Shown here: positions 3,040-54,209 of the stretch, one piece after another | How positions within the stretch are numbered: the stretch's first letter is position 1 | Layout of the letters: the number at the start of each line of letters is the position of its first letter | From: an uncultured Gemmatimonadales bacterium | Lineage (GTDB): Bacteria; Gemmatimonadota; Gemmatimonadetes; Gemmatimonadales; GWC2-71-9 | Reading direction: 5' to 3' | DNA length: 64,000 nt | Assembly (NCBI GenBank): GCA_963779755.1 | Contig: CAVZZO010000001.1 | Coordinates: 1,340,845-1,404,844, forward strand | The notes under the pieces: generated by a model | Told to the model about the DNA's origin: nothing | What the model saw: the letters and a program-made list of their open reading frames with translations, nothing else | The model's database searches: none | Translations under genes and position numbers: made by a program

Positions 3040-3084
3040 CCCGCTCCGGCTGGGCGGACCGTTTCCGCCCCGGTAGATTAGGGC

Positions 3085-3849: not shown

Positions 3850-4010
3850 GTCGGCAGGGTGCCGGGGCGAACTCGTGTCGCCGGCTCAGCCGCCGCAATC
3901 GAGGCGTGCCCCGGAGGTGCCGTCCCGCTTCGGTGATATCTTTCCATATTCACGAGGCAGGCGACGTTCCCCTCCTCCGCTTCTGCGGCGTCATCATGTG
4001 AGCCGTCGGT

Positions 4011-5000
4011 ATGGCTGAGACTGTCCACGACCGCGATACCCTGATCCCGGTGGCCGCCCGCAATCCGGGGATCCCGCTGGAGCTCGACTGGGTCCGCGAC
4101 GTCCGGATCAACCGCAGCGCGGTCGAGCGGCGCGCCGCGACGCTGGGGCCGCGCCGCTCGGTCAAGCGCGAGTGGCAGGCGGCCTGGCTGCTGCGGGCCA
4201 TCACCTGCATCGATCTCACCACCCTTCAGGGCGATGACACGCCGGGCCGGGTCCGCCGGCTCTGCGCCAAGGCGCGGCAACCGGTGCGCCTGGATCTGCT
4301 GCAGGCGCTGGGCGCGGAGCGGCTGCCCATCCGGGCTGCCGCGGTCTGCGTCTACCACGCCTTCGTGGAGACGGCGGTGGAGGCGCTGCAGGGCTCGGGT
4401 ATTCCGGTGGCCGCGGTTTCCACCGGCTTCCCCGCGGGGTTGTCGCCGGTGGCTCAGCGTCTGGCGGAGATCCGCGCATCGGTTGCGGCCGGCGCCGAAG
4501 AAATCGACGTGGTGATCACCCGGGCTCACGTGCTCACCGGGAACTGGCCGGCACTATACGCCGAGGTCCGCAGCTTTCGCGATGCCTGCGGCGACACCCA
4601 TATCAAGACCATCCTTGCCACCGGAGAGCTGGCCACGCTGCGCAACGTGGCCCGGGCCAGCCTGGTGTGCATGATGGCCGGCGCCGATTTCATCAAGACG
4701 TCCACCGGCAAGGAGCCGGTGAATGCCACCCTTCCGGTCGGCCTGGTCATGGCCCGGGCCATCCGCGCCTATCGCGAGCGCACCGGCTACCGCGTGGGGT
4801 TCAAGGCCGCCGGCGGGATCCGGACCGCCAGACAGGCGCTCCAGTGGCTGGCCCTGCTGAAAGACGAGCTGGGCGCTCCCTGGCTGCGGCCCGAGCTGTT
4901 CCGCTTCGGGGCCAGCTCGTTGCTCCTGGACATCGAACGCCAGCTGGAACATTTCGCCACCGGGCGCTACTCGGCGGCCTATCGGCATCCGATGGCGTGA
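4011..5000 (+). CDS. deoC: deoxyribose-phosphate aldolase (long form)
   Basis: Motifs CIDLTTLQGDDT, KTILATGEL and ADFIKTSTGK (Schiff-base Lys region) are typical of DeoC. Confidence 0.85.
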   Translation: MAETVHDRDTLIPVAARNPGIPLELDWVRDVRINRSAVERRAATLGPRRSVKREWQAAWLLRAITCIDLTTLQGDDTPGRVRRLCAKARQPVRLDLLQALGAERLPIRAAAVCVYHAFVETAVEALQGSGIPVAAVSTGFPAGLSPVAQRLAEIRASVAAGAEEIDVVITRAHVLTGNWPALYAEVRSFRDACGDTHIKTILATGELATLRNVARASLVCMMAGADFIKTSTGKEPVNATLPVGLVMARAIRAYRERTGYRVGFKAAGGIRTARQALQWLALLKDELGAPWLRPELFRFGASSLLLDIERQLEHFATGRYSAAYRHPMA

Positions 5001-5003
5001 CCA

Positions 5004-5091
5004 CAGGGATCGGGGACCAGGGATCGGGAGTCAGGGCCCCTGATTCCTGATTCCTGATCCCTGGTCCCTGATCCCTGAATCCCCGATTCCC
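5004..5091. repeat. imperfect hairpin built from tandem heptamers (GGGATCG/GGGACCA arm against a TGATCCC/TGATTCC x6 arm)
   Basis: Read directly. The left arm cagggatcggggaccagggatcgggagtcaggg is roughly the reverse complement of the right arm ccctgattcctgattcctgatccctggtccctgatccctg. It fills the deoC-ALDH spacer. Confidence 0.8.
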
Positions 5092-5100
5092 GGTCTCTCT

Positions 5101-6600
5101 ATGGCCAGCATCCCCGAGATCTTCGAATCCCTCGACTACGGTCCCGCTCCCGAGTCGGCCGGCCCCGCCGTCGGCTGGCTGGAAAAGCACCAACGCCGGT
5201 TCGGGCTCTTCATCAACGGCGAGTGGGTGCAGTCCGGAGAGAGCTTTCCAACCGTGAATCCGGCTACCGGCGAGAGGCTGGCGGAGATCGCCCAGGCGGG
5301 GGAGCGGGAGGTCGAGCAGGCGGTGGCCGCGGCCGCGGCTGTGCAGCCGGCCTGGTGGAAACTCGGCGGCCACGGCAGGGCGCGCCATCTCTACGCCCTC
5401 GCCCGCCAGGTCCAGAAACACTCCCGGCTCTTTGCCGTGCTGGAATCGCTGGACAACGGCAAGCCCATCCGGGAGTCGCGCGATATCGACATCCCGCTGG
5501 TGGCGCGCCACTTCTATCATCACGCCGGATGGGCGCAGCTCATGGCCACCGAGCTGCCGGGCGAGGTGCCGGTGGGGGTGGTGGGGCAGATTATCCCCTG
5601 GAACTTCCCGCTGCTGATGCTGAGCTGGAAGATCGCGCCGGCGCTCGCCATGGGGAACACGGTGGTACTGAAGCCCGCCGAGTTCACCCCGCTGACCGCG
5701 CTGCTCTTTGCCGATCTCTGCCGGGAGGCGGGGCTGCCGCCCGGGGTGGTAAACATCATCACCGGCGATGGCCGCACCGGCGAGCTGCTGGTGCGCCACC
5801 CCGGCGTGGCCAAGATCGCCTTTACCGGCAGCACCGAGGTCGGCCGGCTCATCCGGACCGCCACGGCCGGCAGCGGCAAGCGGTTGTCGCTGGAACTGGG
5901 CGGCAAGTCGCCGTTCATGGTCTACGAAGACGCCGACCTCGACAGCGTCGTGGAAGGCGTGGTGGACGCGATCTGGTTCAACCAGGGGCAGGTCTGCTGC
6001 GCCGGGTCCCGTATTCTGGCGCAGGAGGGCGTGGCCGACGCTCTGGTATCGAAGCTGCGCGCCCGCATGGAATCCTTGCGCGTCGGCTCGCCGCTCGACA
6101 AGGCTGTGGATATCGGCGCCATCGTGGCGCCGGTGCAGCTGGAACGCATTCAGACCCTGGTGCGGCGCGGAGAGGAAGAGGGTGCCACCTGCTGGCAACC
6201 GTCCTGGGCCTGTCCCGAGGAGGGACTGTTCTACCCGCCCACCCTGTTTACCGATGTTGCTCCCTCGGCCACCATCGCCCAGGAGGAGATCTTCGGGCCG
6301 GTGGTGGTGCTCATGACCTTCCGCACGCCCGACGAATCGGTGGAGCTGGCCAACAACACACGCTACGGCCTGGCCGCCAGCCTCTGGACCGAGAACATCA
6401 ACCTGGCGCTCGATATCGCTCCCCGGGTGAAGGCGGGTACGGTCTGGATCAACTGCACCAACGTGTTCGATGCCGCCTCCGGCTTCGGCGGCTACCGGGA
6501 GAGCGGGTTCGGCCGCGAGGGCGGGAAGGAAGGCTTGTGGGAATACGTCCGGCCCACATGGGAATCCCAGGCCGGTGCGGAAGCACCGCCCGCCCCCCAC
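5101..6600 (+). CDS. aldehyde dehydrogenase, complete catalytic module; the literal ORF runs on without a stop to 7029 as off-frame-looking sequence
   Basis: ALDH motifs are present: PWNFPLLM, GNTVVLKPAEFTP, FTGSTEVG, ELGGKSP (catalytic Glu), QGQVCCAGSR (catalytic Cys), EEIFGPV and GYRESGFGREGG. Homology-like sequence ends near ..GLWEYVRPTWE (about 6560). The remaining 150 codons are Arg/Pro/Ala-rich junk. Confidence 0.8.
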
Positions 6601-7481
6601 CTGCCCGCCCGGCCGCCCGCCCGGTTGCGCTCCCTCCCATCGACCGCACCGCCAAGCTCTACATCGGCGGCAGGCAGGTGCGGCCCGACGGCGGCTACAG
6701 CGACCCGGTCCACGGCGCCGATGGCACGGTGCTGGGCGAGGTGGCCCGGGCCAACCGCAAGGACGTCCGCAACGCGGTGGAGGCAGCGCACCAGGCCGGC
6801 GGCTGGGCGCGCGCCACGGCGCACACCCGGGCGCAGATTCTCTACTATCTGGCCGAGAACCTCTCCGCCCGCTCGGAGGAATTCGTCCGCCGGGTGGCGG
6901 CGCTCACCGGTGAGCGCCGGGCCGCCGCGGCGCGCGAGGTGGCGCTCACGATCGAGCGGCTCTACACCTGGGCGGCCTGGGCGGACAAGTGGGACGGGGC
7001 GGTGCACCATACCCCGTTCCGCAATGTGACCCTTGCCATGCCGGAGCCGCTGGGGGTGCTGGGCATCGTCTGTCCGGCCGAGCGGCCGCTGCTGGGGCTG
7101 GTGGCCACCGTTGCTCCGGCCATCGCCATGGGCAATACCGTGGTCGCGGTGCCCTCGGAGGCGCTGCCGCTGGCCGCCACCGATTTCTATCAGGTCATCG
7201 ATACTTCCGATGTCCCGCCCGGCGTGGTCAACCTGTTGACCGGGCCGGCCGACGAGCTGACCCGGGTGCTGGCCGCGCACGACGATGTAGACGGACTCTG
7301 GTACTTCGGGTCCTCCCGGGGGAGCGCCGAAGTCGAGCGCCTCTCGGCCGCCAACATGAAACGGACCTGGGTGAGCTACGGCCGTGCGCGCGACTGGGCC
7401 GATCCCGTGCAGGGAGCCGGCCCGGAATTCCTGCGCCGGGCGACGCAGGTCAAGAACATCTGGATTCCCTACGGCGAGTAG
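6558..7481 (+). CDS. ALDH-like second module (NAD-binding half only, no catalytic Cys region). It is either the frameshifted C-terminal part of a fused two-module ALDH or a separate gene starting at ATG 6558.
   Basis: The frame of track ORF 5223..7481 becomes protein-like only from ..PPIDRTAKLYIGGRQVRPDGGY. It contains GNTVVAVPSE and PPGVVNLLTG, which parallel GNTVVLKPAE and PPGVVNIITG of module 1. It ends about 35 aa after the ELGGK-equivalent position. Confidence 0.65.
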   Translation: MGIPGRCGSTARPPPARPAARPVALPPIDRTAKLYIGGRQVRPDGGYSDPVHGADGTVLGEVARANRKDVRNAVEAAHQAGGWARATAHTRAQILYYLAENLSARSEEFVRRVAALTGERRAAAAREVALTIERLYTWAAWADKWDGAVHHTPFRNVTLAMPEPLGVLGIVCPAERPLLGLVATVAPAIAMGNTVVAVPSEALPLAATDFYQVIDTSDVPPGVVNLLTGPADELTRVLAAHDDVDGLWYFGSSRGSAEVERLSAANMKRTWVSYGRARDWADPVQGAGPEFLRRATQVKNIWIPYGE

Positions 7482-7493
7482 CGGGCTGGTCTC

Positions 7494-8237
7494 TCAGCCG
7501 GCGGACCGCGGTGCCTGCAGGATCTGGGCAGCCATGCGCTGTCCCCCGATTCGGTAGGGCGAAACCACATGCGTCGCGCCCGCGCGGAGCAGCTTGGCCT
7601 CCGCGCTGCGGTGGCTGGCGCGGGCCACGATCGTGAGGCGGGGTTGCAGGGTGCGCGCCGTCAGGCTGATCACGATGTTGGTCGAGTCGTCGCCCGTGGC
7701 CGCGACCAGCCCTGCGGCGCGCTGGATGCCCGCGCGTTCCAGCGCATCCTCGCTCGACGCATCGGCCTCGATGCAGAGCAGGCCCGGCTCCAGCGTGGCC
7801 AGGGGAGCCGGATCGGACTCGATGACCACCACCTCGGCCCCCTCGCCGCGGAGGTCCTCGACCACCTGCTGTCCCACCCGGCCATATCCGCAGACGATAT
7901 AGTGGCCCGTCAGGACGTCGATCGCGTGCTGCATGCGGCGTATCCTCAGTGTTCCGGTGAGTTCCCCGCCGATCAGGTACTCTACCAGCGTGCTCAGCAG
8001 GAAGGCCATGGTGCCGACCCCGCCCAGGATAAGCGCAATGGTAAAGACCCGCCCGGCGGACGAGAGCGTGTGGACCTCGCCGAACCCGACGGTGGTCAGG
8101 GTGATCACCGTCATGTAGAGCGCGTCCAGCGCCGAATAGCCCTCCAGCACCACATAGCCGGCCGTGCCCACCAGAGCAAAGGCGAGCAGGGCCAGGCCCA
8201 GCCGGATGAGCCGGAGGCGGAGGGTGCCCGAAGGCAT
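7494..8237 (-). CDS. potassium channel protein (2-TM pore plus RCK/TrkA-N domain)
   Basis: ATG at 8237 (MPSGTLRLRLIRLG). K+ selectivity filter TLTTVGFGE, then the Rossmann motif HYIVCGYGRVGQQVVEDL of the RCK domain. Confidence 0.8.
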   Translation of the reverse strand: MPSGTLRLRLIRLGLALLAFALVGTAGYVVLEGYSALDALYMTVITLTTVGFGEVHTLSSAGRVFTIALILGGVGTMAFLLSTLVEYLIGGELTGTLRIRRMQHAIDVLTGHYIVCGYGRVGQQVVEDLRGEGAEVVVIESDPAPLATLEPGLLCIEADASSEDALERAGIQRAAGLVAATGDDSTNIVISLTARTLQPRLTIVARASHRSAEAKLLRAGATHVVSPYRIGGQRMAAQILQAPRSAG

Positions 8238-8334
8238 GCGGGAGATCCTTCCAGTTGTCGGGGGACGCCGCGCGAAAACTATTGCGGATGGGTGGGCGGG
8301 GAAAGGAGTGACGCCGGGTCGGGGCTCCGGTTCC

Positions 8335-11386: not shown

Positions 11387-13323
11387 GGACGAACCCTCCA
11401 CCAGAACAGCCGAAGCCAGCGGGCCGGTCCCCGAAGCAGCCGGCCGGCGGCGGACATCGATCCGGTGAGGACCCGGGCGTGTGCCGCCATGCCGGGACGC
11501 AGCAGCCCCGCGGGGTTGGGGATCGCGGCCCGAACGGGAAACAGCACCTCCGGCAGGGTATCGAGCGGCAACACGCCGATCTGGGTGACCCGGCCGGTGA
11601 AGGTGTGCTGGGGCAGCGCGTCCACCCGCAGCCGGACCTCCTGGCCCGCCTGCACCCGGTCGAGGTCGCGCTGCTGGACCCCGAACTCCAGCAGGAGCGT
11701 GTCGGTCCGGCCCACGGTCACCACCGGATCGCCCGCGGCCAGCCGGAGGCCGATCCGTTCCTCCGGGCGGGCGGTCAGCACCAGGCCGGAGGACGGCGCA
11801 CGCACGGTGCTGGCGGCGATCTGCTGGTCCAGCAGGGACACCTCCTGGTGCAGCCCGTCGGCCCGGCTCCGCTGCAGGCGCTCTTCCGCCGCATCGGCCC
11901 GGCTGGCTGCCAGCGCGGCCGCGCGGTCGGCCGCCAGCGCTTCACCCGCCCGCTCCTGCCGTTGCGCCTGCAGGTCGATATCCCGCAACTGCGCGAGCAT
12001 CGTACCGCGGGCGACCCGCTCGCCCTCGCGCACGGCCACCTGCTCGATCACTCCGGGGACGGGGGTGCGCACGGGGAGCAGGGCGCTGGCGCGGAAGACG
12101 GGATGCGATCCGCCGACCCGCAGGGGCCACCGGATGAGCGTCGCGGCCGCGAGCACCAGGACCGCGGCCGCCAGCCAGGCCTGCTTCCGTCGCCGCGGCA
12201 AGGCGAGGAATGCCCGCTTGCGCGCGGCCAGCGCTCCCCAGGTGTCGGCCATCGGCACCTGATGGTAGAGCTGCGCGTTGCGCAGGGCGACCGTGGTCTG
12301 GTTGGCCAGGATTTCGGCCACCTCCCGCTGGGTCGCCTGCGCGAAGTCGGGGGCCCGCGCTTCGAAGAGCAGCACGCCGAGCAGCCCCTCCTCGTCCTTG
12401 AGCGGGAGGTAGAGCCCGCTGCGCAGCTCCTCCTCCGCCAGGTCGGACCCGAAGGCGCTGACGAACGCGGCATCGGTCTCGGAACCCGCCGCCTCGCGGT
12501 CGGGCAGATAGTACGCCTCGCCCCGTGTGCCGGCCCACATGGCGCGCTCCGCCAGGCGGCGTACCGGGGGCGACTTGGCGTCCACCGACTCCTGGCCCGC
12601 GATGGCCCGGACCTCCCAGCGGCGGTTGGCGAGCAGTACCACCGCCCCCCGATCGAACACCAGGGCGCGGGCGGCGAGGTTGACGACCGACTGCAGCACC
12701 CGGTCGAGGTCCAGGGTCGCGGTGATTTCGTGGCTGATCTCCAGCAACAGCGCCAGATCGCGGGCGCGGCGCTCGGCCGCATGCAGCTGCGCGTTGCGCA
12801 GGGCCACGGCCGCGCTGGCGGCCAGGCCCTCCAGCAGCTCACGGTCCTGCTGGTCGAAGATGCCGTCACCTCCGACCTTGTTGACCACCTGGATCGAGCC
12901 CACGGTGATGCCCTTGGCCACCATGGGAGTGGCCATGATCGTGGTGGCGATCATCTGGCTGGAACGGTCCACCCGCTGTTCGAACCGCGGGTCGCGCATG
13001 GCGTCGGTGACGATCGTGGTGCGCTGTTTCCGGGCCACATCGCCCACGAACCCGGCGCCCAGCGGCATGGCGGTGCCCACCAGTTTCCGGCTGGAGGCAC
13101 CCAGCGCCAGGCGGCAGCGGAGTTCGTCGCCTTCCGCGATCCAGAGGGATCCCCCCTGGGCGCCGACCGCGCTCAGGACGGCGTCAAAGACCCGCGGGAG
13201 CAGGGCATCGAAATCGAGGGACGAATTGAAGTCCTGGCTGATACGGTGCAGGAGGCGCAGCCGCTCGACCTCCGCCCGCAGTTCCGCCTCTTCAAAGGCT
13301 GCGATCTCGGGCGGCTCGGTCAT
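11383..13323 (-). CDS. GAF-GAF-TM-HlyD protein: two cytoplasmic GAF domains fused through one TM helix to a periplasmic adaptor domain
   Basis: Two GAF-like units (..LLHRISQDFNSSLDFDALLPRVF...GFVGDVARKQRTTIVTDAMRDPRF.. and ..LLLEISHEITATLDLDRVLQSVV..), each ending in ALRNAQL. The TM segment is AWLAAAVLVLAAATLI. Adaptor motifs follow (VIEQVAVREGERVARGTMLAQL, a coiled coil, VRAPSSGLVLT). Confidence 0.8.
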   Translation of the reverse strand: MTEPPEIAAFEEAELRAEVERLRLLHRISQDFNSSLDFDALLPRVFDAVLSAVGAQGGSLWIAEGDELRCRLALGASSRKLVGTAMPLGAGFVGDVARKQRTTIVTDAMRDPRFEQRVDRSSQMIATTIMATPMVAKGITVGSIQVVNKVGGDGIFDQQDRELLEGLAASAAVALRNAQLHAAERRARDLALLLEISHEITATLDLDRVLQSVVNLAARALVFDRGAVVLLANRRWEVRAIAGQESVDAKSPPVRRLAERAMWAGTRGEAYYLPDREAAGSETDAAFVSAFGSDLAEEELRSGLYLPLKDEEGLLGVLLFEARAPDFAQATQREVAEILANQTTVALRNAQLYHQVPMADTWGALAARKRAFLALPRRRKQAWLAAAVLVLAAATLIRWPLRVGGSHPVFRASALLPVRTPVPGVIEQVAVREGERVARGTMLAQLRDIDLQAQRQERAGEALAADRAAALAASRADAAEERLQRSRADGLHQEVSLLDQQIAASTVRAPSSGLVLTARPEERIGLRLAAGDPVVTVGRTDTLLLEFGVQQRDLDRVQAGQEVRLRVDALPQHTFTGRVTQIGVLPLDTLPEVLFPVRAAIPNPAGLLRPGMAAHARVLTGSMSAAGRLLRGPARWLRLFWWRVRP

Positions 13324-14252: not shown

Positions 14253-16520
14253 ATGACCGGCCTCGTCATCAACCTGCTGGGCCCCCCCTCCGGGGTGCTT
14301 CCAGCCGCTGGCTCCAAGGCCTTGTCCAGCAAGGACATGGGCCTGCTGGCCTACCTCGTTCTCGAACCCGGTCCGCACCGGCGGGACGAGCTCGCCGCCC
14401 TGCTCTGGAGCGAGTCGGACGACGAGCACGCCCGGGCCTCCCTGCGCCAGGCCCTGAAGCGCCTGCGGGCCCAACTGGGCGAGACCTTGCTTGCCACCCG
14501 GAGCAGCGTTCAACTCGCCGGCGGCGTTGCCTGCGATGTCCTGGCCTTCCAGCGGGCGAGCTCTGCCGAACCGGAAACGGCCGCCCGGTATGACGTGAAC
14601 AGCTTCCTGAGCGGTCTGGTGGTGCGGCATGCGCCGGTCTTCGAGGAGTGGCTGGACACCACCCGCCTCCGCCTGCGCCGCCAGTACGAAGATCTGGTCA
14701 CCGGGCTGGCCCGCGCCGCCATGTTGCGCTGGCAGTGGCGTGAGGCCGGCGAGTGGGCCGGCTACGGCCTCGGCTCCAATCCCCTCTCCGAGGAGTGCGC
14801 CCGGATCGCCGTCGAAGCCCTCTACCTCTCCGGCAGCCGCCGGCGGGCGCTGGCGCTCCACGCCGAGTACGAAGCCCGCTGCATCCGCGAACTCGGAATG
14901 TCACCGGGGCCCGAGCTGCGGGCGCTGCGCGACCGCATCATGGCCGGGCCGGAGGACGGGCATCCCACGCCTATTTCGGCAGAGTGGTTTTCCCGCATGC
15001 CTGTCATCGACCCGCCGCTGGTGGGGCGGAGTGACGCCTGGGACCTGCTCATGAGTGTCTGGAAGTCTCTGCGGCGGGGGCAGGGGAGACTGGTTGTCAT
15101 TCAGGGCGATGCCGGCGTGGGAAAGAGCCGGCTGGCCGACGACTTCCTTCGCTGGGCGGCGGCGGAGGGCGCCACCGTGCTGCGGGGAGAGGGCTACGAC
15201 CCCCGGGCGGGGGTGCCGTACGGTCCGGTGGCTGCCGCCTTGCGGGCCAGCCTGGATGCGCCCGGCCTGGCGGGCACCGATCCGGAATGGCTGGCCGAAG
15301 TGGGGCGGCTCCTGCCGGAGCTGCGCCGCCGGTTTCCCGCGCTACCCACGCCTCCGGAGGGCGATGCCACCGCCCGCTGGCGGCTATTCGAGGGGCTGGC
15401 GCAGGTAGTGCTGGCCCTGGCCGAGGAGCGGCCGGTGGTCTTTCTGGTAGACGATCTCCAGTGGTGCGACAGCGAGAGTTGCGCGCTGCTGCACTTCCTC
15501 GCCCGCCGCTGGGCGGCCGCTCCGGTCGCGTTGGTTGCGTCCCTTACCCTGGGGGAGGCGGAAAGAGCGGCGCCGGCGGCCCGGCTCTCCCGCGCCCTGT
15601 GCAGCGAGGACCATGCCCGGGTCCTGACGCTGACGGCGCTCTCCGACACCGACGTCCGCCAGCTGATCCGCCAGTTGGGGAAGATCCACGACCCGCGGGG
15701 CGGTGCCCGCTTCGCCGCCCGGATTCATGCCGTCACCAAGGGAAATCCCTTCTATATCGTCGAGCTGCTCAAGACGCTGTTCGCCCAGGGGCTGCTCGCC
15801 ACGGATCCGGAAACGGGCGCCTGGATGGCCGGGCCGGAGGTGTCGCTGACGTCGGGACATTTTCCCCTGCCCCCATCGGTGCGCGAGGCCGTGGCCGCCC
15901 GGGTCGAGCGCCTGCCCTATCAGCTCCGCGATCTGCTCACCACCTCGGCGGTGGCGGCGGCACCGTGCCGGGCGGAGCTCATGTCACTGGTTCACGGCAT
16001 CTCGCGCCTGCACGCGGCGGCGCTTTGCGACGAGCTGGTGGAACGACACCTGCTGGTGGAGGAAGCCGGCGCGTATCGCTGCGCTCACCCGCTGATTGCG
16101 GACGTGGTCCGGGCGGAGGCGACCGCCAGCCGCCGGCGGGAAGTGCACCGCGCGATCGCGCTGGCGCTGATGCGCGAGGCAGCCGAAGGGCGCGATGAAA
16201 CGGGGCGGATAGCCTGGCATGCGGCGCGGGCGGGGGAGCACGCCCTGGCCTATCGCCATGCGCTGCTGGCCAGCGAGGAGTGCGCCAGCCGCTACGCTCC
16301 GGAGGAGGCGCTGATGTGGCTCGATATCGCCGCCACGGCCGCCGCGGACGACACCCAGCGGGAGGAGGTCAACCGCCGGACCGCGGGCGTGCTGGACCTG
16401 GCCGGCTGGCGCGAGCCGCCCCGGCGCTCGCTGCCGCGCGACAGTCTGGGCGCCGCCCTCCACGCCGAGGATATCGATTTCCGGGTGCTGATGAGCGAGG
16501 CACCGGGCCAGCCGGGCTAG
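14253..16520 (+). CDS. SARP/AfsR-like regulator: OmpR-type winged helix plus BTAD domain, AAA/NB-ARC-like ATPase and a C-terminal helical repeat region
   Basis: ATG at 14253 (MTGLVINLLGPP..); a TTG at 14223 is also possible. wHTH pattern DMGLLAYLVLEPGPHRRDELAALLWSE..ARASLRQALKRLRAQLG. BTAD region ..ALALHAEYEARCIRELGMSPGPELRALRDRI... Walker A GDAGVGKSRLADDF, Walker B VVFLVDDLQWCD. Confidence 0.8.
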   Translation: MTGLVINLLGPPSGVLPAAGSKALSSKDMGLLAYLVLEPGPHRRDELAALLWSESDDEHARASLRQALKRLRAQLGETLLATRSSVQLAGGVACDVLAFQRASSAEPETAARYDVNSFLSGLVVRHAPVFEEWLDTTRLRLRRQYEDLVTGLARAAMLRWQWREAGEWAGYGLGSNPLSEECARIAVEALYLSGSRRRALALHAEYEARCIRELGMSPGPELRALRDRIMAGPEDGHPTPISAEWFSRMPVIDPPLVGRSDAWDLLMSVWKSLRRGQGRLVVIQGDAGVGKSRLADDFLRWAAAEGATVLRGEGYDPRAGVPYGPVAAALRASLDAPGLAGTDPEWLAEVGRLLPELRRRFPALPTPPEGDATARWRLFEGLAQVVLALAEERPVVFLVDDLQWCDSESCALLHFLARRWAAAPVALVASLTLGEAERAAPAARLSRALCSEDHARVLTLTALSDTDVRQLIRQLGKIHDPRGGARFAARIHAVTKGNPFYIVELLKTLFAQGLLATDPETGAWMAGPEVSLTSGHFPLPPSVREAVAARVERLPYQLRDLLTTSAVAAAPCRAELMSLVHGISRLHAAALCDELVERHLLVEEAGAYRCAHPLIADVVRAEATASRRREVHRAIALALMREAAEGRDETGRIAWHAARAGEHALAYRHALLASEECASRYAPEEALMWLDIAATAAADDTQREEVNRRTAGVLDLAGWREPPRRSLPRDSLGAALHAEDIDFRVLMSEAPGQPG

Positions 16521-36037: not shown

Positions 36038-36092
36038 AGGCGGCAAGACGGCAGGTGGAGCGCTCACGTGCCGTCCTGCCGTCCTGCCGCCT
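36038..36092. repeat. 18-bp hairpin of GGCAAGAC/GGCAGG units (aggcggcaagacggcagg ... cctgccgtcctgccgcct), ending 3 nt before the punA ATG
   Basis: Read directly. One mismatch, 19-nt loop. Member of the GGCARGRC family. Confidence 0.85.
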
Positions 36093-40803: not shown

Positions 40804-42369
40804 TCATCGCCCCAACATGACGTTGATCCCGAACGCGATCGCGCCCACGATCGCTCCCAGCACGTAACCCAGGTTCACGATCAGGTCCAGCTCCTTCTGC
40901 GTCACGTTGCGGACGATCTCCTCCATCCGCTGCGTGCTGAACCCCAGCACCTTCTGCTCCACCATCTCCTGGACCTGGATCTGCCCCACCAGCATGGGGA
41001 TCTGGCTCTGCACCCAGCCCCAGGCGGCCTCCACCAGATCCTGCCTGACCCGTGCCGAGCGCTCCTCGCCCAGCCAGCCGGCGGGGCGGCCCAGCGGGCG
41101 GTCGAGCAGGTGGTTCGCCACCGAGCGTACCGTCTCCTCCACCCACTGCTTCCCCCGCGGCCCCGCGGCGGCATCGGCAATGAGCCGGGCCAGCGTCTCG
41201 GCCGGGATGGCGTCCAGCACGTCTCCCCAGGTCCGTTGCTCGGCGGCGTGCAAGGCGCGGTCGACCGTCTGGCCGATCACCCGCCGGGTACCGGCATCGC
41301 GCGCCAGCTTTACCGCCCAGTCGCCCAGGGTCTTCTCCAGATCGGCCCGGCGTTGCTCGCCCAGCCGGCGGAATCGCTCGGCCAGGGGAATGCGCAGGAA
41401 GCTCACCACCGCATCGTTCACCGCGCGGGCAACCTGGGCCTCGATGGCCGGACTCTTCAGCTCGAAGCCCAGCCGGTCCAGCCCCCGCCTCTCGAACCCG
41501 TCCACCAGCCGCGCGATGGTGCGGTCGGTCACCACCATCTTGGCAAGGATGCGCTCGTGCAGCAGCAGATCGCGCACCGTATGGTCGAACGCGTCGCGCA
41601 GGGCGCCCTCGACCTGCCGCCGGGTATCGGGGTTCTGCAGCACCGAGCCGAGCCGCTCCACCGCGACGGGGAGATAATCGGTGATCCCCTGCTCGACGGC
41701 CCCCACCAGCCCGGGCGGCAGCCGCTCCAGCAGGGGCCGGTCGTCGCGTGCCAGGCTGTCCATCTGCTGCGTGATGAACCCGCGTACCGCGTTCTCCAGT
41801 GCCTCGCCCTCGGCCATCTGCCCCACCCACTCGTCCACCTTGCGGGCCAGTGACTCCCGGCGGCCGGCCGTCAGCACCTCGCCCAGCGGCCGGTCGCCCA
41901 GCTCGGCGCGGAGCTTCTCCTGCCAGACCTCCACCCGGGCGACGAAAGCAGGGCCGGCCGTGTACTCCGCCAGCCGCCGGGCCACTACATCGCTCAGTTC
42001 GGGCAGCGCCTGCTCGACGGTCTCCAGCAGGGACGGGCTCAGGCCCTGGCGGAGGGGGCCGCGATCGCGCTCCAGCAGGTCGTTCAGGAAACCGCCGATG
42101 GCCCGGGCGAAGGTCTCATAGACGCTCGGCGTGCTGAGCCGCTGGGCCAGGTCCTCCGGCGTCAGCAGCCGCTCGCCCACCGCCTTGCCCACGCTCTTCG
42201 CCAGACGGGCCTTGTTCTTGGGGATGGCGCCATGAAACCGGAACGGCCCGAACCCGCGCCGGTCGTGGGGATGAAACAGCATCCAGACGGCGACGGCGTT
42301 GGTGATGCCGCCGGACAAGGCACCGACCAGGACGGTGACGATGCCGGTGACGAGGAGCTGGTGGTTCAT
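40804..42369 (-). CDS. DUF445 family membrane-associated protein
   Basis: ATG at 42369. MNHQLLVTGIVTVLVGALSGGITNAVAVWMLFHP...GAIPKNKARLAKSVG.. is the DUF445 N-terminal signature. There is a C-terminal TM helix. Confidence 0.75.
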   Translation of the reverse strand: MNHQLLVTGIVTVLVGALSGGITNAVAVWMLFHPHDRRGFGPFRFHGAIPKNKARLAKSVGKAVGERLLTPEDLAQRLSTPSVYETFARAIGGFLNDLLERDRGPLRQGLSPSLLETVEQALPELSDVVARRLAEYTAGPAFVARVEVWQEKLRAELGDRPLGEVLTAGRRESLARKVDEWVGQMAEGEALENAVRGFITQQMDSLARDDRPLLERLPPGLVGAVEQGITDYLPVAVERLGSVLQNPDTRRQVEGALRDAFDHTVRDLLLHERILAKMVVTDRTIARLVDGFERRGLDRLGFELKSPAIEAQVARAVNDAVVSFLRIPLAERFRRLGEQRRADLEKTLGDWAVKLARDAGTRRVIGQTVDRALHAAEQRTWGDVLDAIPAETLARLIADAAAGPRGKQWVEETVRSVANHLLDRPLGRPAGWLGEERSARVRQDLVEAAWGWVQSQIPMLVGQIQVQEMVEQKVLGFSTQRMEEIVRNVTQKELDLIVNLGYVLGAIVGAIAFGINVMLGR

Positions 42370-42384
42370 GGGTTGGGGAGTATA

Positions 42385-42420
42385 GGCGGCAGGGCGGCAG
42401 GGCGGCAGGGCGGCAGGTGG
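42385..42420. repeat. (GGCAGGGC)x4 octamer array ending GGCAGGTGG
   Basis: Read directly. Its reverse complement (CGCCCTGC)n matches the array at 42973-43052. Confidence 0.9.
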
Positions 42421-42506
42421 GCCGACCCGGACGCCTCCGCGGGCTTCTGAAACGCCCAGCGCTCGAATGATGACAGTCGAGAGGCAGGCGCTGAATACCG
42501 TGGAGC

Positions 42507-42932
42507 ATGCCAAACGCCACCTCCAAGCCCTCGAGGCTCAGTTCCTTTCAGCGCCTCACGGCCTGGCGCGCCTGCCACGAGCTGACTCTCGCGATATATA
42601 GGCAATCCGACTCATGGCCCGAGACCGAGCGCTATGGCCTGATCTCGCAGGTCCGGCGGGCGGCCGTGTCGTGCTGCTGCAACATTGCGGAGGGCAGCGC
42701 AAAGCGTGGGAGTGCCGAGTTCAGGCGTTTTCTCGACATGGCCCTCGGTTCACTGGCCGAGATCGAGGCTCTGTTTCTCATCGCGAGAGATCTTGGGATT
42801 CTCCAGAAGACCACCTGGGGAGAACTTGAGGCTTTCCGCGACCACGCTGGCAAATTGGTTTGGGGTCTGTACCTGGCTGTCGGGAGGCGGACAACGCCGC
42901 GGCCTGCCAAGCCCAGAACGGAGAAGGGATAA
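42507..42932 (+). CDS. four-helix-bundle protein of the 23S rRNA intervening-sequence / Avd-like family
   Basis: ..FQRLTAWRACHELTLAIYRQSDSWPETERYGLISQVRRAAVSCCCNIAEGSAKRGSAEFRRFLDMALGSLAEIEALFLIARDLG.. matches the family pattern (F..L.vW..a..L....Y......P..E.y.L..Q.rRAa.Si..NIAEG..r....e...fl..A.GS..E). Confidence 0.8.
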   Translation: MPNATSKPSRLSSFQRLTAWRACHELTLAIYRQSDSWPETERYGLISQVRRAAVSCCCNIAEGSAKRGSAEFRRFLDMALGSLAEIEALFLIARDLGILQKTTWGELEAFRDHAGKLVWGLYLAVGRRTTPRPAKPRTEKG

Positions 42933-42972
42933 GGGAACGGTCTGGCACGCCGGGCTCTTGTGCAGCATTCTC

Positions 42973-43052
42973 CGCCTTGCCGCCTTGCCGCCTTGCCGCC
43001 TTGCCGCCTTGCCGCCTTGCCGCCTTGCCGCCTTGCCGCCCTGCCGCCTTGC
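42973..43052. repeat. (CGCCTTGC)x10 octamer array (units 1-8 and 10 CGCCTTGC, unit 9 CGCCCTGC)
   Basis: Read directly. It is in inverted orientation relative to 42385-42420. It creates the spurious N-terminal ORF extension ..PPCRLAALPPCRL.. of the ffh track ORF. Confidence 0.9.
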
Positions 43053-43087
43053 TCCTAACCCCATGTCCGCGCTATAATTCCCGGCTT

Positions 43088-44476
43088 ATGTTCGAGGAGC
43101 TTTCGTCCAAACTGACCTCCACCCTGGCCCGCTTCACGGGCCGGGGTGTTCTGACCGAAGAGGCAGTCCGGGAGGGCCTGCGGGAGATCCGCCGGATCCT
43201 GCTCGAGGCGGACGTCAGCTTCGACCTCACGAGGGAATTCCTCGAACATGTGCAGGCCAAAGCGGTTGGGGCGGACGTGCTCAAGAGCGTCCGGCCCGGC
43301 CAGCAGCTGGTCAAGGTCGTCTACGACGAGCTGGTGGCCATGCTGGGCGAGACGCGCGCCCCGCTGGCCGTCGCCTCGGTGCCGCCCACCCTCATCCTGG
43401 TGGTGGGGCTCCAGGGCTCGGGCAAGACGACCACCGTGGCCAAGCTGGCCCGGCGGCTCAAGCAGGAGCAGAAGGCGCCCTTCGTGGTGGCGGCCGACGT
43501 CTACCGTCCCGCCGCCGAAGAGCAGCTGAAGCAGCTGGCGAAGCAGGTGGAGGTCGGTGCCTTCGGCATGACGGATTGGGTGGGGCAGGGTGGACCTGCC
43601 GTCCTGCCGTCTTCCCGTCCTGCGGCGGGGTCGGTGGATGTGGTGGGGCTCGTCCGCTCGGGCATGGAGGCCGCGGGCAAGGCCCGGGCCCGGACGGTCA
43701 TCGTGGATACCGCCGGCCGGCTGCAGATAGACGAAGAGATGATGCACGAGCTGCAGGGCCTGAAGGGCGCCCTGCGGCCGCAGGAGATCCTCCTCGTGGC
43801 CGACGGCATGACCGGCCAGGATGCGGTCCGCATCGCCCGCGGGTTCCACGAGGCGCTGGGCATCACCGGGGTGGTGCTCACCAAGATGGACGGCGACAGC
43901 CGCGGCGGCGCGGCGCTTTCCATCTATGGCGTCACCCACGCGCCCATCAAGTTCGTGGGCACCGGCGAGCGGGTGGATGCGCTGGAGCCGTTCCACCCCG
44001 AGCGGATGGCGGGGCGCATTCTCCAGCAGGGGGATATCCTCTCGCTGGTGGAGAAGGCCCAGGCCACGGTGGACGAGGCCGAGGCCGAGAAGCTGGCGAA
44101 GAAGGCGGGCAGCAAGAAGGGGCTCGATCTGGGCGACTTCCTCACCGCCATGAAGCAGCTCCAGAAGATGGGGCCGCTCAAGAACGTGCTGGGGATGCTG
44201 CCGGGGGTGAACCCGGCGATGCTCAAGTCGGCCAACGTGGACGAAAAGCGGATCCGCCACATCGAGGCGATCGTGCTCTCCATGACGCCCAAGGAACGGG
44301 CCGACCCCGACGTCCTGAACGGATCGCGCCGGCTGCGCATCGCCAAAGGCTCGGGCCGGACGGTGCAGGAGGTAAATCAGCTGCTGAATCAGTTCAAGCA
44401 GATGAAAAAGTTCATGAAGGTGGCCGGGCGTCCCGGCATGAAGCTCCCGCTGGGGGGGATGTTCCCCGGGATGTAA
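43088..44476 (+). CDS. ffh: signal recognition particle protein Ffh
   Basis: ATG at 43088 (MFEELSSKLTSTLARFTGRG). GLQGSGKTTTVAKLA, DTAGRL, TKMDGDSRGGAALS and a Met-rich M domain. It contains an extra segment of about 18 codons (see findings). Confidence 0.95.
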   Translation: MFEELSSKLTSTLARFTGRGVLTEEAVREGLREIRRILLEADVSFDLTREFLEHVQAKAVGADVLKSVRPGQQLVKVVYDELVAMLGETRAPLAVASVPPTLILVVGLQGSGKTTTVAKLARRLKQEQKAPFVVAADVYRPAAEEQLKQLAKQVEVGAFGMTDWVGQGGPAVLPSSRPAAGSVDVVGLVRSGMEAAGKARARTVIVDTAGRLQIDEEMMHELQGLKGALRPQEILLVADGMTGQDAVRIARGFHEALGITGVVLTKMDGDSRGGAALSIYGVTHAPIKFVGTGERVDALEPFHPERMAGRILQQGDILSLVEKAQATVDEAEAEKLAKKAGSKKGLDLGDFLTAMKQLQKMGPLKNVLGMLPGVNPAMLKSANVDEKRIRHIEAIVLSMTPKERADPDVLNGSRRLRIAKGSGRTVQEVNQLLNQFKQMKKFMKVAGRPGMKLPLGGMFPGM

Positions 44477-46447: not shown

Positions 46448-47116
46448 GTGCGGCGCCAGCGCCCCTCCCTCGCGCGCGAAGCCGAGGTCTGGGCGTCGGA
46501 ACGTCTGCTGGTCGGTGTGGATGAAGTCGGCCGCGGCCCCCTGGCTGGTCCAGTGGTGGCCGCGGCCGTCGTCTTTCCTCCCCACGTCACCCGCCTGTAT
46601 GGCCTGCGCGACAGCAAAGTCCTGACCGCCCGCCAGCGCGAGAAGCTGGCCGGCCGCATTCGCCAGCGGGCCCTGGCGCTGGCCGTGGGCGCCGCGTCCT
46701 GCCGCGAGATCGACCGCCTCAATATCCGGGTCGCCAGCGCGCTGGCCATGCGCCGCGCGGTCCGGCGGGTGCTCGTCCTTCTGCGCCGGGCCGAGCCGCC
46801 GGCCGCGCTGGCCGATCCCGCCGCCCGCTACCAGGTCCTGATCGACGGCCTGCCGCTGCCCGAGTTGGGCCTGCCGCACGACGCCCTGGTGGACGGCGAC
46901 GCGCTCTGCGACTCCATCGCCGCCGCCGCCGTCATCGCCAAGACGGTGCGCGACCATCTCATGGCGCGCCTGGCGCAGCGCTACCCCGGCTACGGCTGGG
47001 AGTCCAACATGGGCTACGCCACCGCCGATCACTGCGCGGCGCTGGGCCGGCGCGGCCCCACCCGGCACCACCGCCTCAGCTTCGAGCCATTGAGCCAGCT
47101 CCGGCTGCCGCTGTAG
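46448..47116 (+). CDS. rnhB: ribonuclease HII
   Basis: ..VGVDEVGRGPLAGPVVAAAV...DSKVLTARQRE...YPGYGWESNMGYAT..H.. Confidence 0.9.
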   Translation: MRRQRPSLAREAEVWASERLLVGVDEVGRGPLAGPVVAAAVVFPPHVTRLYGLRDSKVLTARQREKLAGRIRQRALALAVGAASCREIDRLNIRVASALAMRRAVRRVLVLLRRAEPPAALADPAARYQVLIDGLPLPELGLPHDALVDGDALCDSIAAAAVIAKTVRDHLMARLAQRYPGYGWESNMGYATADHCAALGRRGPTRHHRLSFEPLSQLRLPL

Positions 47117-47250
47117 AAGAACCGCGACACGGAGGCACGGAGGCACGGAGCAAGCGAGCTACTACGGCGGCGGCGCCTACGGGGTTATGTATTTAGAACT
47201 TATGTTCCTCCGTGTCTCCGTGTCTCCGTGTCTCCGTGTCACAGTTCTTC
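47116..47250. repeat. long-loop inverted repeat: arms GAAGAAC(CGC/TGT)GACACGGAG(G/A)CACGGAG.. of CACGGAG octamer units (3 units on the left, 4 on the right) around a ~57-nt lower-GC loop
   Basis: 47116-47150 against the reverse complement of 47208-47250, read directly. The right arm ends just before the pepN RBS (caggaga). Confidence 0.85.
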
Positions 47251-49714: not shown

Positions 49715-49816
49715 GGCGGTAAGGCGGGAAGACGGGAAGGTGGGAAGAGGGAAAGGGGAATGGGGAACGGGCCGTTTCCCTGTTCCCCATTCCCGTTTCC
49801 CTTTAGTTTTCCCGCT
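49711..49816. repeat. purine-rich / pyrimidine-rich octamer-unit hairpin (GGTAAGGC GGTAAGGC GGGAAGAC GGGAAGGT ... against ..CTGTTCCC CATTCCCG TTTCCC..)
   Basis: The centre ggggaatggggaacgggccgtttccctgttccccattccc is a near-perfect palindrome. It starts inside the pepN stop codon region and ends 5 nt before the tRNA. Confidence 0.8.
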
Positions 49817-49820
49817 CTCC

Positions 49821-49893
<73 letters not shown>

Positions 49894-49902
49894 TTAGAGG
49901 GC

Positions 49903-49982
49903 GGCAAGACGGCAAGACGGCAAGACGGCAAGACGGCAAGACGGCAAGGCGGCAGGACGGCAAGACGGCAGGACGGCAGGTG
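49903..49982. repeat. 10-unit octamer array (GGCAAGAC x5, GGCAAGGC, GGCAGGAC, GGCAAGAC, GGCAGGAC, GGCAGGTG) directly 3' of the tRNA
   Basis: Read directly. No clear complementary arm nearby. It ends with the GGCAGGTGGA terminus shared with other arrays. Confidence 0.9.
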
Positions 49983-50158
49983 GACGAAACCAGAACGGTC
50001 CTCCGGGTGTGGGGGCCGCCTTTCCATTCTCCTACTGCCCTCCAACCCCTGTAGGTGTAAACCCTTACTTGCCGCCGCTGTCCTGGATGCTACAGTAGAT
50101 GTGTACGTTCAGCAGAACCCTGCTGCGACAGACCACCGCATAGCCCGTCTCGCTGCAC

Positions 50159-53459: not shown

Positions 53460-53858
53460 GTGGTCAACGCTGTTCTGTTCGCCCTGTCGGTCGGGTTCTG
53501 CCTCACGTTCCTGCTGGTGGGCGTCTTCCGCTGGCGCCACCCGCGCCATCCGGCCATGTGGAAGGCCGCCGTCTTTCTCTTCGCCATCCTCTTTCTGGTA
53601 GTCCTGGTCGCCGGAGTCTGGCAGCCCAATTACGGGTCGCCCTGGGGGCAAGGGTACTGGGTCACGTTCGTGCTGGTCGGCTCCGTCGCGGCCATGTTTC
53701 TCGCCGCCGCCCCGCCGGAGCGGCGTCCGCCGCCGGAAGCGACAGCCGAGGTGGCCGAGTACCACGAGAAGGAGATTTCCGGCACCGTCTTCGGCGTGTT
53801 CTTCTGGATGCTGCTTCTTTCGCTGGGCCTGGTGCTGGGAATCCGGCTGATACACTAG
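53460..53858 (+). CDS. hypothetical membrane protein (4 TM)
   Basis: GTG start. Hydrophobic segments VLFALSVGFCLTFLLVGVF, AAVFLFAILFLVVLVAGVW, WVTFVLVGSVAAMFLAA and VFGVFFWMLLLSLGLVLGI. Confidence 0.5.
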   Translation: MVNAVLFALSVGFCLTFLLVGVFRWRHPRHPAMWKAAVFLFAILFLVVLVAGVWQPNYGSPWGQGYWVTFVLVGSVAAMFLAAAPPERRPPPEATAEVAEYHEKEISGTVFGVFFWMLLLSLGLVLGIRLIH

Positions 53859-53995
53859 GACGGCAGGACGGCCCTGAAGGACCTCCTCGCGGCCTCTTCG
53901 TTGGAGGGCCGCTCGGTCGCAGGACGGCAGGACGGCCCTAAAGGACTTCCTCGCGGCTCTCTATTGGAGGCCGCTCGGTCGCAGGACGGCAGGGG
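53858..53995. repeat. 2.2 tandem copies of a ~62-nt unit beginning AGGACGGCAGGACGGCCCT
   Basis: 53858-53920 and 53921-53982 align nearly base for base, with a few substitutions and a 1-nt length difference, followed by a partial third start. Read directly. Confidence 0.9.
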
Positions 53996-54037
53996 AAGGT
54001 GCCCACGCTCCGCGCCTGTTGGACGCCGATCTTCGCT

Positions 54038-54128
54038 CAGCCATCAGCCATCAGCCATCAGCCATCAGCCATCAGCCATCAGCCATCAGCCATCAGCCAT
54101 CAGCCATCAGCCATCAGCCATCAGCCCT
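54038..54128. repeat. perfect (CAGCCAT)x12 heptamer microsatellite plus one degenerate unit, continuing into CGCCTTCC-type octamers to about 54180
   Basis: Read directly. It causes the spurious ..SAISHQPSAISHQP.. ORF translations in three frames. Confidence 0.95.
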
Positions 54129-54209
54129 CCGTCCTCCGCCCTTCCCGCCTTCCCGCCCTGCCGCCTTCCCGCCTATTTTCCCCCCATCCTTCTTCAGGAT
54201 CAGTCACTC

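Follow-up and report, generated by a model that had tools for sequence, protein, structure and literature searches.

A putatively translated tandem-repeat array in the insertion-box loop of the signal recognition particle protein Ffh in Gemmatimonadales

The ffh gene and its expanded loop

A stretch of 64,000 nucleotides from an uncultured Gemmatimonadales soil bacterium (contig CAVZZO010000001.1 of assembly GCA_963779755.1; hereafter the window, numbered from its first letter) contains ffh, the gene for the protein Ffh/SRP54 of the signal recognition particle (SRP). Between GTPase motifs II and III this gene carries about 18 additional codons, and the DNA of the insert resembles the octanucleotide (octamer) repeats found between genes of the same window. 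The features of the gene are the following.

43088-44476, plus strand: ffh, the host gene, encoding signal recognition particle protein Ffh/SRP54 (462 amino acids plus stop), from the open reading frame and its translation
43565-43636, plus strand: expanded loop of the insertion-box subdomain, amino acids 160-183, GMTDWVGQGGPAVLPSSRPAAGSV; about 18 codons beyond the 8-residue loop of insert-less orthologues, from alignments
43577-43594, plus strand: G-rich half of the insert, TGGGTGGGGCAGGGTGGA, encoding WVGQGG and ending in a GGCAGG(G)TGGA junction
43596-43627, plus strand: C-rich octamer array of four units, CTGCCGTC, CTGCCGTC, TTCCCGTC and CTGCGGCG, preceded by the G-rich TGGGTGGGGCAGGGTGGA

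The ffh product matches solved Ffh chains over its full length, with B. subtilis 7o5b_g as the best match (E = 3e-131, phmmer), and it has everything by which a member of Ffh/SRP54 is recognised: the N domain, the SRP54-type GTPase domain and the methionine-rich M domain (Pfam PF02881, PF00448 and PF02978, assigned on the identical database protein P0001). The reading frame is open throughout the insert, and the GTPase motifs read from the translation are intact on both sides of it (GLQGSGKT at residues 107-114 and DVYRPAA at 137-143; DTAGR at 207-211 and TKMD at 265-268), all remaining motifs being present downstream. In phmmer/HMMER alignments, B. subtilis 7o5b_g and E. coli 2xxa_A show a gap of about 15-18 residues facing query residues ~167-184. 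An earlier note, made from this DNA alone, had claimed some 18 extra codons at 43574-43630 relative to E. coli Ffh. The difference of 18 is correct, ten Gemmatimonadales orthologues from GTDB genomes being exactly 18 residues shorter at this loop, whereas the absolute counts given for the interval (47 against 29 residues) become 44 against 26 on recounting; the coordinates correspond to codons D163-G181, and the DNA that was quoted is found at 43583-43625. Judged by alignment, the exact boundaries of the extra codons within 43565-43636 are ambiguous, and the G-rich half (43577-43594) is probably in part native loop. The loop GAAGCGGGCAGC of the insert-less L001 (L numbers denote related loci) resembles the 5' part of the inserts. 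The C-rich octamer array is read in all three phases, giving the peptide (P)AVLPSSRPAA, and is imperfect, with two exact and two degenerate units; Tandem Repeats Finder (TRF) reports a period-8 array at 43595-43623 with 3.6 copies and 80% matches.

The insert lies between motifs II and III, which by position is the insertion-box subdomain of SRP GTPases. In an AlphaFold2 model computed with a 120-sequence alignment (mean predicted local distance difference test score, pLDDT, 74.8), ten-residue blocks score 91-95 before the insert and 82-94 after it; the block 171-180 averages 49, and pLDDT falls below 50 at residues 175-181. The model has a strand at 157-159, a short helix at 161-166, coil to 184 and a helix at 185-198. 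Its NG domain superposes on B. subtilis Ffh 7o9f and E. coli Ffh NG structures with a template modelling (TM) score of 0.93 and a root-mean-square deviation of 2.0 Å (Foldseek; 316 alignment columns, 300-residue target). The earlier note had expected a surface loop on an NG-domain structure, and in the mapping made here the insert falls in low-confidence coil between confidently modelled elements. The site is thus predicted to be flexible, and the loop is probably exposed.

At the start of the gene, the ffh ATG is preceded, at a distance of 8 nt, by an exact TATAAT (43074-43090), which leaves no space for a ribosome-binding site, a position that suggests a leaderless mRNA. A consensus scan of 42300-43700 found no complete sigma-70-type promoter and no terminator, and a promoter role of the (CCGCCTTG)10 array located upstream of ffh was rejected, as the scan gave no sigma-70-type site.

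Kinship of the insert with intergenic octamer arrays

The intergenic array that most resembles the insert adjoins a tRNA gene.

49902-49983, minus strand: intergenic octamer array adjoining tRNA-Lys; nothing else in the window is as close to the ffh insert as its inner end
49821-49893: tRNA-Lys, anticodon ttt, from an Rfam search of the window

The window holds seven arrays of period 8 and at least 22 nt in length, where dinucleotide shuffles predict 0.05, and three arrays of period 7, where they predict 0.15; the same test found none of periods 5, 10, 11 or 13. The 16-mer CTGCCGTCCTGCCGTC of the insert has 19 matches in the window at two mismatches or fewer, compared with 0.23 expected. Three of these lie outside the arrays, two in ffh and one at 62499, and the remainder fall in the arrays at 36039-36091, 42385-42416, 49908-49979 and 53859-53938, which read as intergenic. 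Local alignment pairs 43594-43623 with 49981-49952 on the minus strand at 29 of 30 positions (E = 1.3e-9). The matched array is 6.3 kb from the octamer run of ffh, and the match spans the inner array boundary as well as a common order of unit variants (CTG-, CTG-, TTG/TTC-, CTGC-). The array match and the 16-mer matches bear out the proposal of the earlier note that the insert belongs to the family of the spacer octamers, and at the level of sequence the extra peptide of Ffh appears to be a translated repeat array homologous to the intergenic arrays.

The order of parts is also shared. In the ffh insert, a G-rich stretch closes with GGCAGGGTGGA, and four C-rich octamers come next; GGCAGGGTGGA stands at the same junction as GGCAGGTGG in the intergenic G-rich arms, and the GGCAGG(G)TGGA junction is likewise found at the inner ends of G-rich intergenic arrays. 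GGCAGGTGG, the end of the G-rich arms, occurs seven times in the window against 1.57 expected, three of the occurrences being at array ends (36050, 42412 and 49975). The insert is thus laid out as a hairpin element whose left arm is truncated. The GGCAGG/CCTGCC mini-hairpin pointed out in the earlier note is present, but shuffled sequence folds just as well as the insert does (z = -0.30 on the plus strand and -1.0 on the minus strand), and the mini-hairpin was discarded as a meaningful structure on the former value. Intergenic arrays fold at z = -4.5 to -8.9; the ffh insert has no significant RNA structure.

Distribution among relatives

The nearest genomes are Gemmatimonadales, at 74-77% identity. 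Loop length was measured from the strand ending in Y/H/F to the conserved D-V-V in the 120 best hits from a large protein collection (75-81% identical), and 48 of these 120 nearest Ffh clusters have an expanded loop, all of them Gemmatimonadales where named.

Loop of 8 residues: 71 clusters
Loop of 7 residues: 1 cluster
Loop of 14-31 residues (6-23 extra): 48 clusters

All 48 variant loops are in frame. The long loops are of low complexity and often show a periodicity of 8 residues (for instance PSSRPAVLPS, PSFRPSVLPS, DRPTARPS and GPSARPPVRPS), the pattern that an octamer yields when read in three phases; no residue and no length is conserved among the inserts of the 120 clusters. L016 (CP070716) carries a 14-codon insert of different sequence at the same loop. 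Directly behind the NG domain, its ffh is masked by a run of N (3943-4042), and its Ffh was compared over residues 1-318 only.

The spacing between motif II (D-x-Y-R-P-A-A) and motif III (D-T-A-G-R) was determined in 171 fetched loci.

Spacing of 51-54 residues: 154 loci, from many phyla
Spacing of 63-73 residues: 11 loci, all Gemmatimonadales insert carriers
Motifs II/III not found: 6 loci

The spacing in the window is 70. The interval is thus normally length-invariant, with expansion confined to the order Gemmatimonadales; by the same spacing check, none of six Gemmatimonadales loci from a scan of metagenome contigs has an expanded loop. The view that the segment is not simply a native loop stands, since many orthologues lack it and the relatives do not all carry a segment of similar length. 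A strain-specific insertion, as the earlier note had also considered, was rejected because a variable insert is present in 48 of the 120 related clusters, where it is interleaved with insert-less lineages. When the loop is left out, a neighbour-joining tree intermingles carriers with non-carriers, the carriers falling into at least six groups. A single clean gain was consequently discarded; repeated gain is inseparable on this tree from loss or allelic recombination.

Replacement of inserts between close strains

Some proteins whose identity outside the loop is 98-99.5% have inserts that are unrelated, or lack an insert (examples are P0005, P0026, P0006, P0027 and P0078; P0093 and P0115; and P0002 and P0010). 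At the DNA level the clearest pair comes from L169 and L170, two samples of one study. The ffh loci compared are these.

L169: 472-1845
L170: 3001-4374
L171, insert-less: 2808-4145

Outside the insert, ffh of L169 and L170 is ~99.5% identical in DNA, and the arrays are unrelated (C-rich octamers in the former, (CGGTCAA)4 in the latter). Substitutions are concentrated in the 60 nt on each side of the insert: L169 and L170 differ at 9 of 120 flanking sites compared with 3 of 1207 distant sites (Fisher p = 5e-8), and L169 and the insert-less L171 at 25 of 120 compared with 57 of 1207 (p = 8e-9). Close protein pairs show the same tendency, divergence in the flanking 21 residues on either side being in 3.8-fold excess where the loops differ and in 1.7-fold excess where they are similar. 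The loop and ~60 nt on each side of it therefore have a history unlike that of the rest of the gene. The flank divergence could represent imported tracts, and hence recombination, or local mutagenesis.

Insert DNA was available from 12 lineages, the window and eleven further carriers, whose units are as follows.

L161, L162: CTGCCGTC
L166: CTCCCGTC
L167: CTTCCGTC
L163, L165: CCGCCCGA
L168: CTGACCGT / CCGACCGT
L169: CCCGNCCG-type octamers
L170: heptamer CGGTCAA, four copies
L016, L164: degenerate

Each lineage has an internally homogeneous insert with a unit of its own of 8 nt (in one case 7 nt); the best local period is 8 in nine of the twelve, 7 in one and 4 in two, and a G-rich stretch followed by a C-rich array is seen in ten. 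Some inserts match arrays elsewhere. That of L168 shares 89% identity across 37 nt with an intergenic array on the same contig at a distance of 8 kb, and its 14-mers match no other locus; that of L167 is 96% identical over 26 nt to an array in the relative L163; and the heptamer array in ffh of L170 is identical at 29 of 29 positions to an array inside rnhB of L169. No duplicated flanking bases and no defined ends were found in the 12 lineages. The earlier description of the insert as an octamer-repeat "element" accordingly gives way to that of a short array without fixed ends, swapped wholesale between near-identical strains.

The rnhB gene provides a second case of repeats within a coding sequence.

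L169, 3793-4638: RNase HII (rnhB) open reading frame, with three in-frame (CGGTCAA)n blocks at 4199-4295

The blocks lengthen by ~27 residues a loop that most relatives, like the window, have in a short form, and the heptamer stands in its stop-free orientation, the reverse of which would read TGA. The heptamer that L170 carries as (CGGTCAA)4 inside ffh is thus found in frame in rnhB of its sibling strain, and in-gene arrays are not peculiar to ffh. At the corresponding place in rnhB of L170, where L169 has the heptamer arrays, there is a run of N (about 6700-6800). In L163, called genes are overlapped at their ends by arrays (8194-8243, 12265-12377 and 14260-14283): an HlyD-like gene at its C-terminus, trmD at its N-terminus and RNase HII in a C-terminal extension of 40 residues. 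Translation of such boundary arrays into protein may be frequent, or the arrays may lead gene callers astray.

Intergenic array hairpins of the window

Most arrays of the window form inverted pairs in which, on the strand of the neighbouring genes, the G-rich arm comes first and the C-rich arm second, and these pairs form long hairpins between co-directional genes.

5004-5077: hairpin, heptamer CCCTGAT, z = -8.9
36038-36092, plus strand: hairpin of the octamer family of the insert, the full-size counterpart of the ffh insert layout, z = -7.3, minimum free energy -43.3 kcal/mol
47116-47250: octamer hairpin, z = -7.1
49748-49802: heptamer hairpin, within the 49700-49815 fold, z = -4.5
42384-42422, plus strand: (GGCGGCAG)4 array, left arm of an inverted pair around a PF05635 gene
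42507-42932, plus strand: PF05635 gene (23S rRNA intervening-sequence protein / four-helix-bundle, Avd-like; Pfam E = 5.8e-28), context outside the insert
42972-43052, plus strand: (CCGCCTTG)10 array immediately before ffh, forming the right arm of that pair, TRF score 155

The hairpin at 36038-36092 has a G-rich arm, a TGGA-containing loop and a C-rich arm with two copies of CTGCCGTC, its inverted repeat of 18 nt being 94% complementary. In the hairpin at 47116-47250, arm mismatches are G-U-compatible on the plus (gene) strand only, and this strand folds 5 kcal/mol better, an asymmetry that hints at an RNA-level role. The arms around the PF05635 gene are 39 nt long and 85-87% complementary; here too the mismatches of the pair (42384-43052) are G-U-compatible only on the strand of the PF05635 gene. 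A homologue of this gene (59% identical) lies in L163 at 5646-6167 between (GGCGGAAA)4 and (CCGCCTTT)3.7. The unit of the arms in L163 is not that of the window, so the two arms have changed in concert. In L010, a PF05635 gene of 35% identity occupies the corresponding place upstream of ffh, on the opposite strand.

Two further places in the window deserve mention. Rfam identifies only the tRNA-Lys in the window, and between 49700 and 49990 this gene stands between a G-rich array hairpin and a (CGGCAAGA)n array, the one that at its inner end best matches the ffh insert. At 53857-54175, a 64-bp repeat in 2.2 copies bounded by GGACGGCAGGACGGC is followed by (TCAGCCA)13 at 54037-54129 and then by C-rich octamers of the CCTTCCCG type that reach the start of a class IV aminotransferase gene. 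Most related loci have arrays, with other repeat units in comparable spacers. Insert-less species have them as well, so the arrays are general in the order Gemmatimonadales and the ffh insert is not.

Origin of the insert

We consider it likely that the insert is the genome's own 7-8-nt tandem-repeat DNA standing in frame in a loop of Ffh, where it would simply be translated, tolerated and rapidly exchanged, with no shown function. Entry of an array and its continued replacement would proceed by non-reciprocal copying. One candidate route is template switching or ectopic gene conversion with other arrays, starting from G-rich microhomology; others are allelic recombination among strains and the gain or loss of units by strand slippage. 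Selection would act as a filter only, retaining lengths that are a multiple of three, stop-free and devoid of a strong mRNA hairpin. Because the 8-nt unit is read in all three phases, any register of the array would be acceptable and would yield a P/S/R/A/V/L-rich or G-rich low-complexity peptide, itself most likely functionless, and the insert may be tolerated because the loop is flexible and probably exposed. The earlier note had left the choice between a domesticated and a tolerated repeat. Tolerance agrees with the intact frame, the many orthologues without an insert and the flexible coil at the site; domestication finds no support. Several points weigh against this account of array copying. 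Neither a target-site duplication nor a terminal inverted repeat nor an enzyme came to light, which makes the mechanism of copying one that we infer, just as the proposed absence of function is read from variability. The inserts of L163, L165, L166 and L169 have no matching array within the 5-21 kb of sequence examined. The CTGCCGTC family also occurs in loci of other species (L168, L163), and similarity within a genome could partly reflect this widespread family and not recent transfer. All relatives are metagenome assemblies, in which strain mixing could inflate clusters of single-nucleotide differences beside the insert, and the neighbour-joining tree lacks support values, so that gains and losses are not countable on it.

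The array could instead be a microsatellite formed in place, an ancestral loop extension having acquired its 8-nt periodicity by local slippage and evolving only by slippage and point mutation, without sequence from other loci. Slippage is the simplest process for tandem arrays, the units of different lineages are 1-2 bases apart, as divergence with homogenisation predicts, and the 5' G-rich part (GGGGCAGGG) is common to inserts of several clades and is like the native loop of the insert-less L001. Yet this origin seems unlikely in view of the 29/30 match to an intergenic array of the same genome with the same variant order and boundary, of the replacement of an octamer array by a heptamer identical to that in the sibling's rnhB in a gene otherwise 99.5% identical, and of divergence that clusters in non-repetitive flanks. 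Still less probable, in our estimation, is a functional or adaptive insert, in which the flexible Pro/Ser/Arg-rich loop or the repeat itself, as DNA or RNA, would have a purpose, for instance in binding a partner, as the target on which an antagonist of Ffh exerts diversifying selection, or in regulating the expression of ffh. Such a role would suit the persistence of inserts in many lineages at one site of an essential protein, the extreme variability and mosaic flanks that are also typical of arms-race loops, and the PF05635 gene and 10-unit array directly upstream of ffh. It sits badly with the 72 of 120 closest relatives that have no insert, including lineages nested among carriers, with inserts that conserve neither a residue nor a length and that correspond exactly in composition to an octamer read in three phases, with the same kind of array in the unrelated loop of RNase HII, and with an insert free of significant RNA structure. 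An artefact of assembly or annotation, or a native loop that is merely repeat-like, is very improbable: repeats do cause misassemblies, as the N run in rnhB of L170 illustrates, and the exact protein of the window is found on a single contig in the protein collection, but the frame is intact through the insert and followed by the GTPase motifs, independent assemblies from different studies have homologous octamer inserts at the same codons (L161, L162, L166, L167), several insert types recur in separate samples, and the statistics against chance are strong. Programmed variation, in the form of a phase-variable contingency locus or the target of a diversity-generating retroelement, has the least to recommend it and can almost be neglected. 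It would draw on a coding-region tandem array whose unit is not a multiple of three, on the hypervariable loop and on the adjacent PF05635 gene of the Avd family. Phase variation was nonetheless rejected: ffh is essential in the bacteria studied, and an on/off switch is implausible because slippage by a single unit would throw Ffh out of frame ahead of motifs III-V and the M domain; moreover, the array is imperfect, with half of its units degenerate. The retroelement target was likewise discarded, as only the Avd-family gene is present, with no reverse transcriptase among the neighbouring genes in the window or ten related loci, no template-repeat partner for the insert apart from the arrays, and allele differences that are not adenine-specific.

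Implications

An interval that ranks among the most constrained in length within a universal GTPase (51-54 residues elsewhere among the sampled loci) takes 6-23 arbitrary low-complexity residues, and a natural permissive site is thereby marked in the insertion-box subdomain of Ffh. In essential genes, repeat DNA that is otherwise non-coding turns into coding sequence and is exchanged time and again in that role, a process of which the present comparisons offer strain-level snapshots. ffh is one of the marker genes for bacterial phylogenomics, and the hypervariable insert, its mosaic flanks and assembly-breaking arrays such as the one at the N-gap in rnhB of L170 can distort alignments, trees and bins for the phylum. 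The finding is broader and more dynamic than the earlier note had proposed.

That repeat DNA serves as coding sequence is known in kind; the possibly undescribed repeat system is a lead. The searchable literature, including that on tandem repeats in Gemmatimonadetes/Gemmatimonas, gave no description of the array hairpins or of their pairing with PF05635, and a literature search on signature indels of SRP likewise had no relevant result. Together with their link to PF05635, the array hairpins may be a family that has yet to be described. We tentatively put forward, as a possibility that we consider less than even, that Gemmatimonadales hold an undescribed class of repeats made of lineage-specific 7-8-nt inverted array pairs that would form hairpins in transcripts, bracket PF05635 genes as REPs do RAYTs, and be copied actively from one locus to another, with permissive loops in essential genes (ffh, rnhB) among the targets, and that would thus create strain-level hypervariable segments and seed new coding sequence.

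Comparison with known systems

Contingency loci share with the ffh insert a slippage-prone coding tandem array whose unit is not a multiple of three. They switch dispensable surface or restriction genes, whereas ffh is an essential gene with an imperfect array, and all outcomes observed are in frame. The 23S rRNA intervening sequences resemble the arrangement upstream of ffh and in L163 in having a PF05635 gene within long complementary arms that would pair in the transcript (42384-43052 in the window; 5646-6167 in L163), but here the unit lies between protein genes and not in an rRNA helix, and the arms are tandem octamers.

RAYT genes, which encode Y1 (IS200/IS605-like) transposases, are bracketed by intergenic REP palindromes. 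The inverted pairs at 5004-5077, 36038-36092, 47116-47250 and 49748-49802, though not the copy in ffh, are like REPs and REPINs in being short imperfect intergenic palindromes, and like the REP/RAYT system they form lineage-specific hairpins between co-directional genes, with one gene bracketed by an inverted pair. The differences are that the arms are tandem 7-8-nt arrays and that the bracketed gene is a PF05635 four-helix-bundle gene and not a Y1 transposase. No transposase was identified, PF05635 being the only repeat-flanked gene seen, and no RAYT screen of the remaining window or genome was made. The STRR sequences of cyanobacteria are tandem heptanucleotide families scattered in non-coding DNA and function-less as far as known. 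Their units differ from those of the window, as does the phylum, and no report of STRR inside conserved protein domains or as inverted array pairs was found in searchable papers. STRR heptamers have been used for fingerprinting (PMC5088731).

In Geobacter metallireducens, the heptanucleotide GGGACCG occurs in four copies at 49 intergenic and intragenic sites, and there are octanucleotide-repeat sites too (PMC2700814). What characterises such families, many dispersed arrays of 7-8 nt both between and within genes, is found here as well, and the likeness extends to GC-rich tandem 7-nt units. The G. metallireducens repeats differ in their phylum and sequence, in a fixed four-copy architecture and in the roles proposed for them, either as binding sites or as regulatory RNA elements, and they are not reported to form hypervariable insertions in any universal gene; the units of the window (CTGCCGTC, CCGCCTTG, ACACGGAG, TCAGCCA and CCCTGAT) are distinct from GGGACCG and GTTGCTYN (PMC2700814).

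Rickettsia palindromic elements (RPEs) are palindrome-type repeats of non-coding DNA, present between genes too, that stand in frame in conserved genes, are translated as an extra peptide and are thought to be compatible with fold and function (PMC10969869). The ffh insert agrees with them in that its repeat DNA is also intergenic, stands in frame in a conserved gene and is absent from orthologues. RPEs are discrete elements of ~150 bp with a family consensus and a conserved encoded peptide, whereas the ffh insert comprises ~54 nt of 8-nt units, has no fixed consensus or ends and is swapped between near-identical strains; the consensus element, terminal inverted repeats and target-site duplication that define RPEs or intragenic miniature inverted-repeat transposable elements are not seen in it. 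In behaviour, RPEs are nevertheless the closest analogue of the repeat DNA in the Ffh loop.

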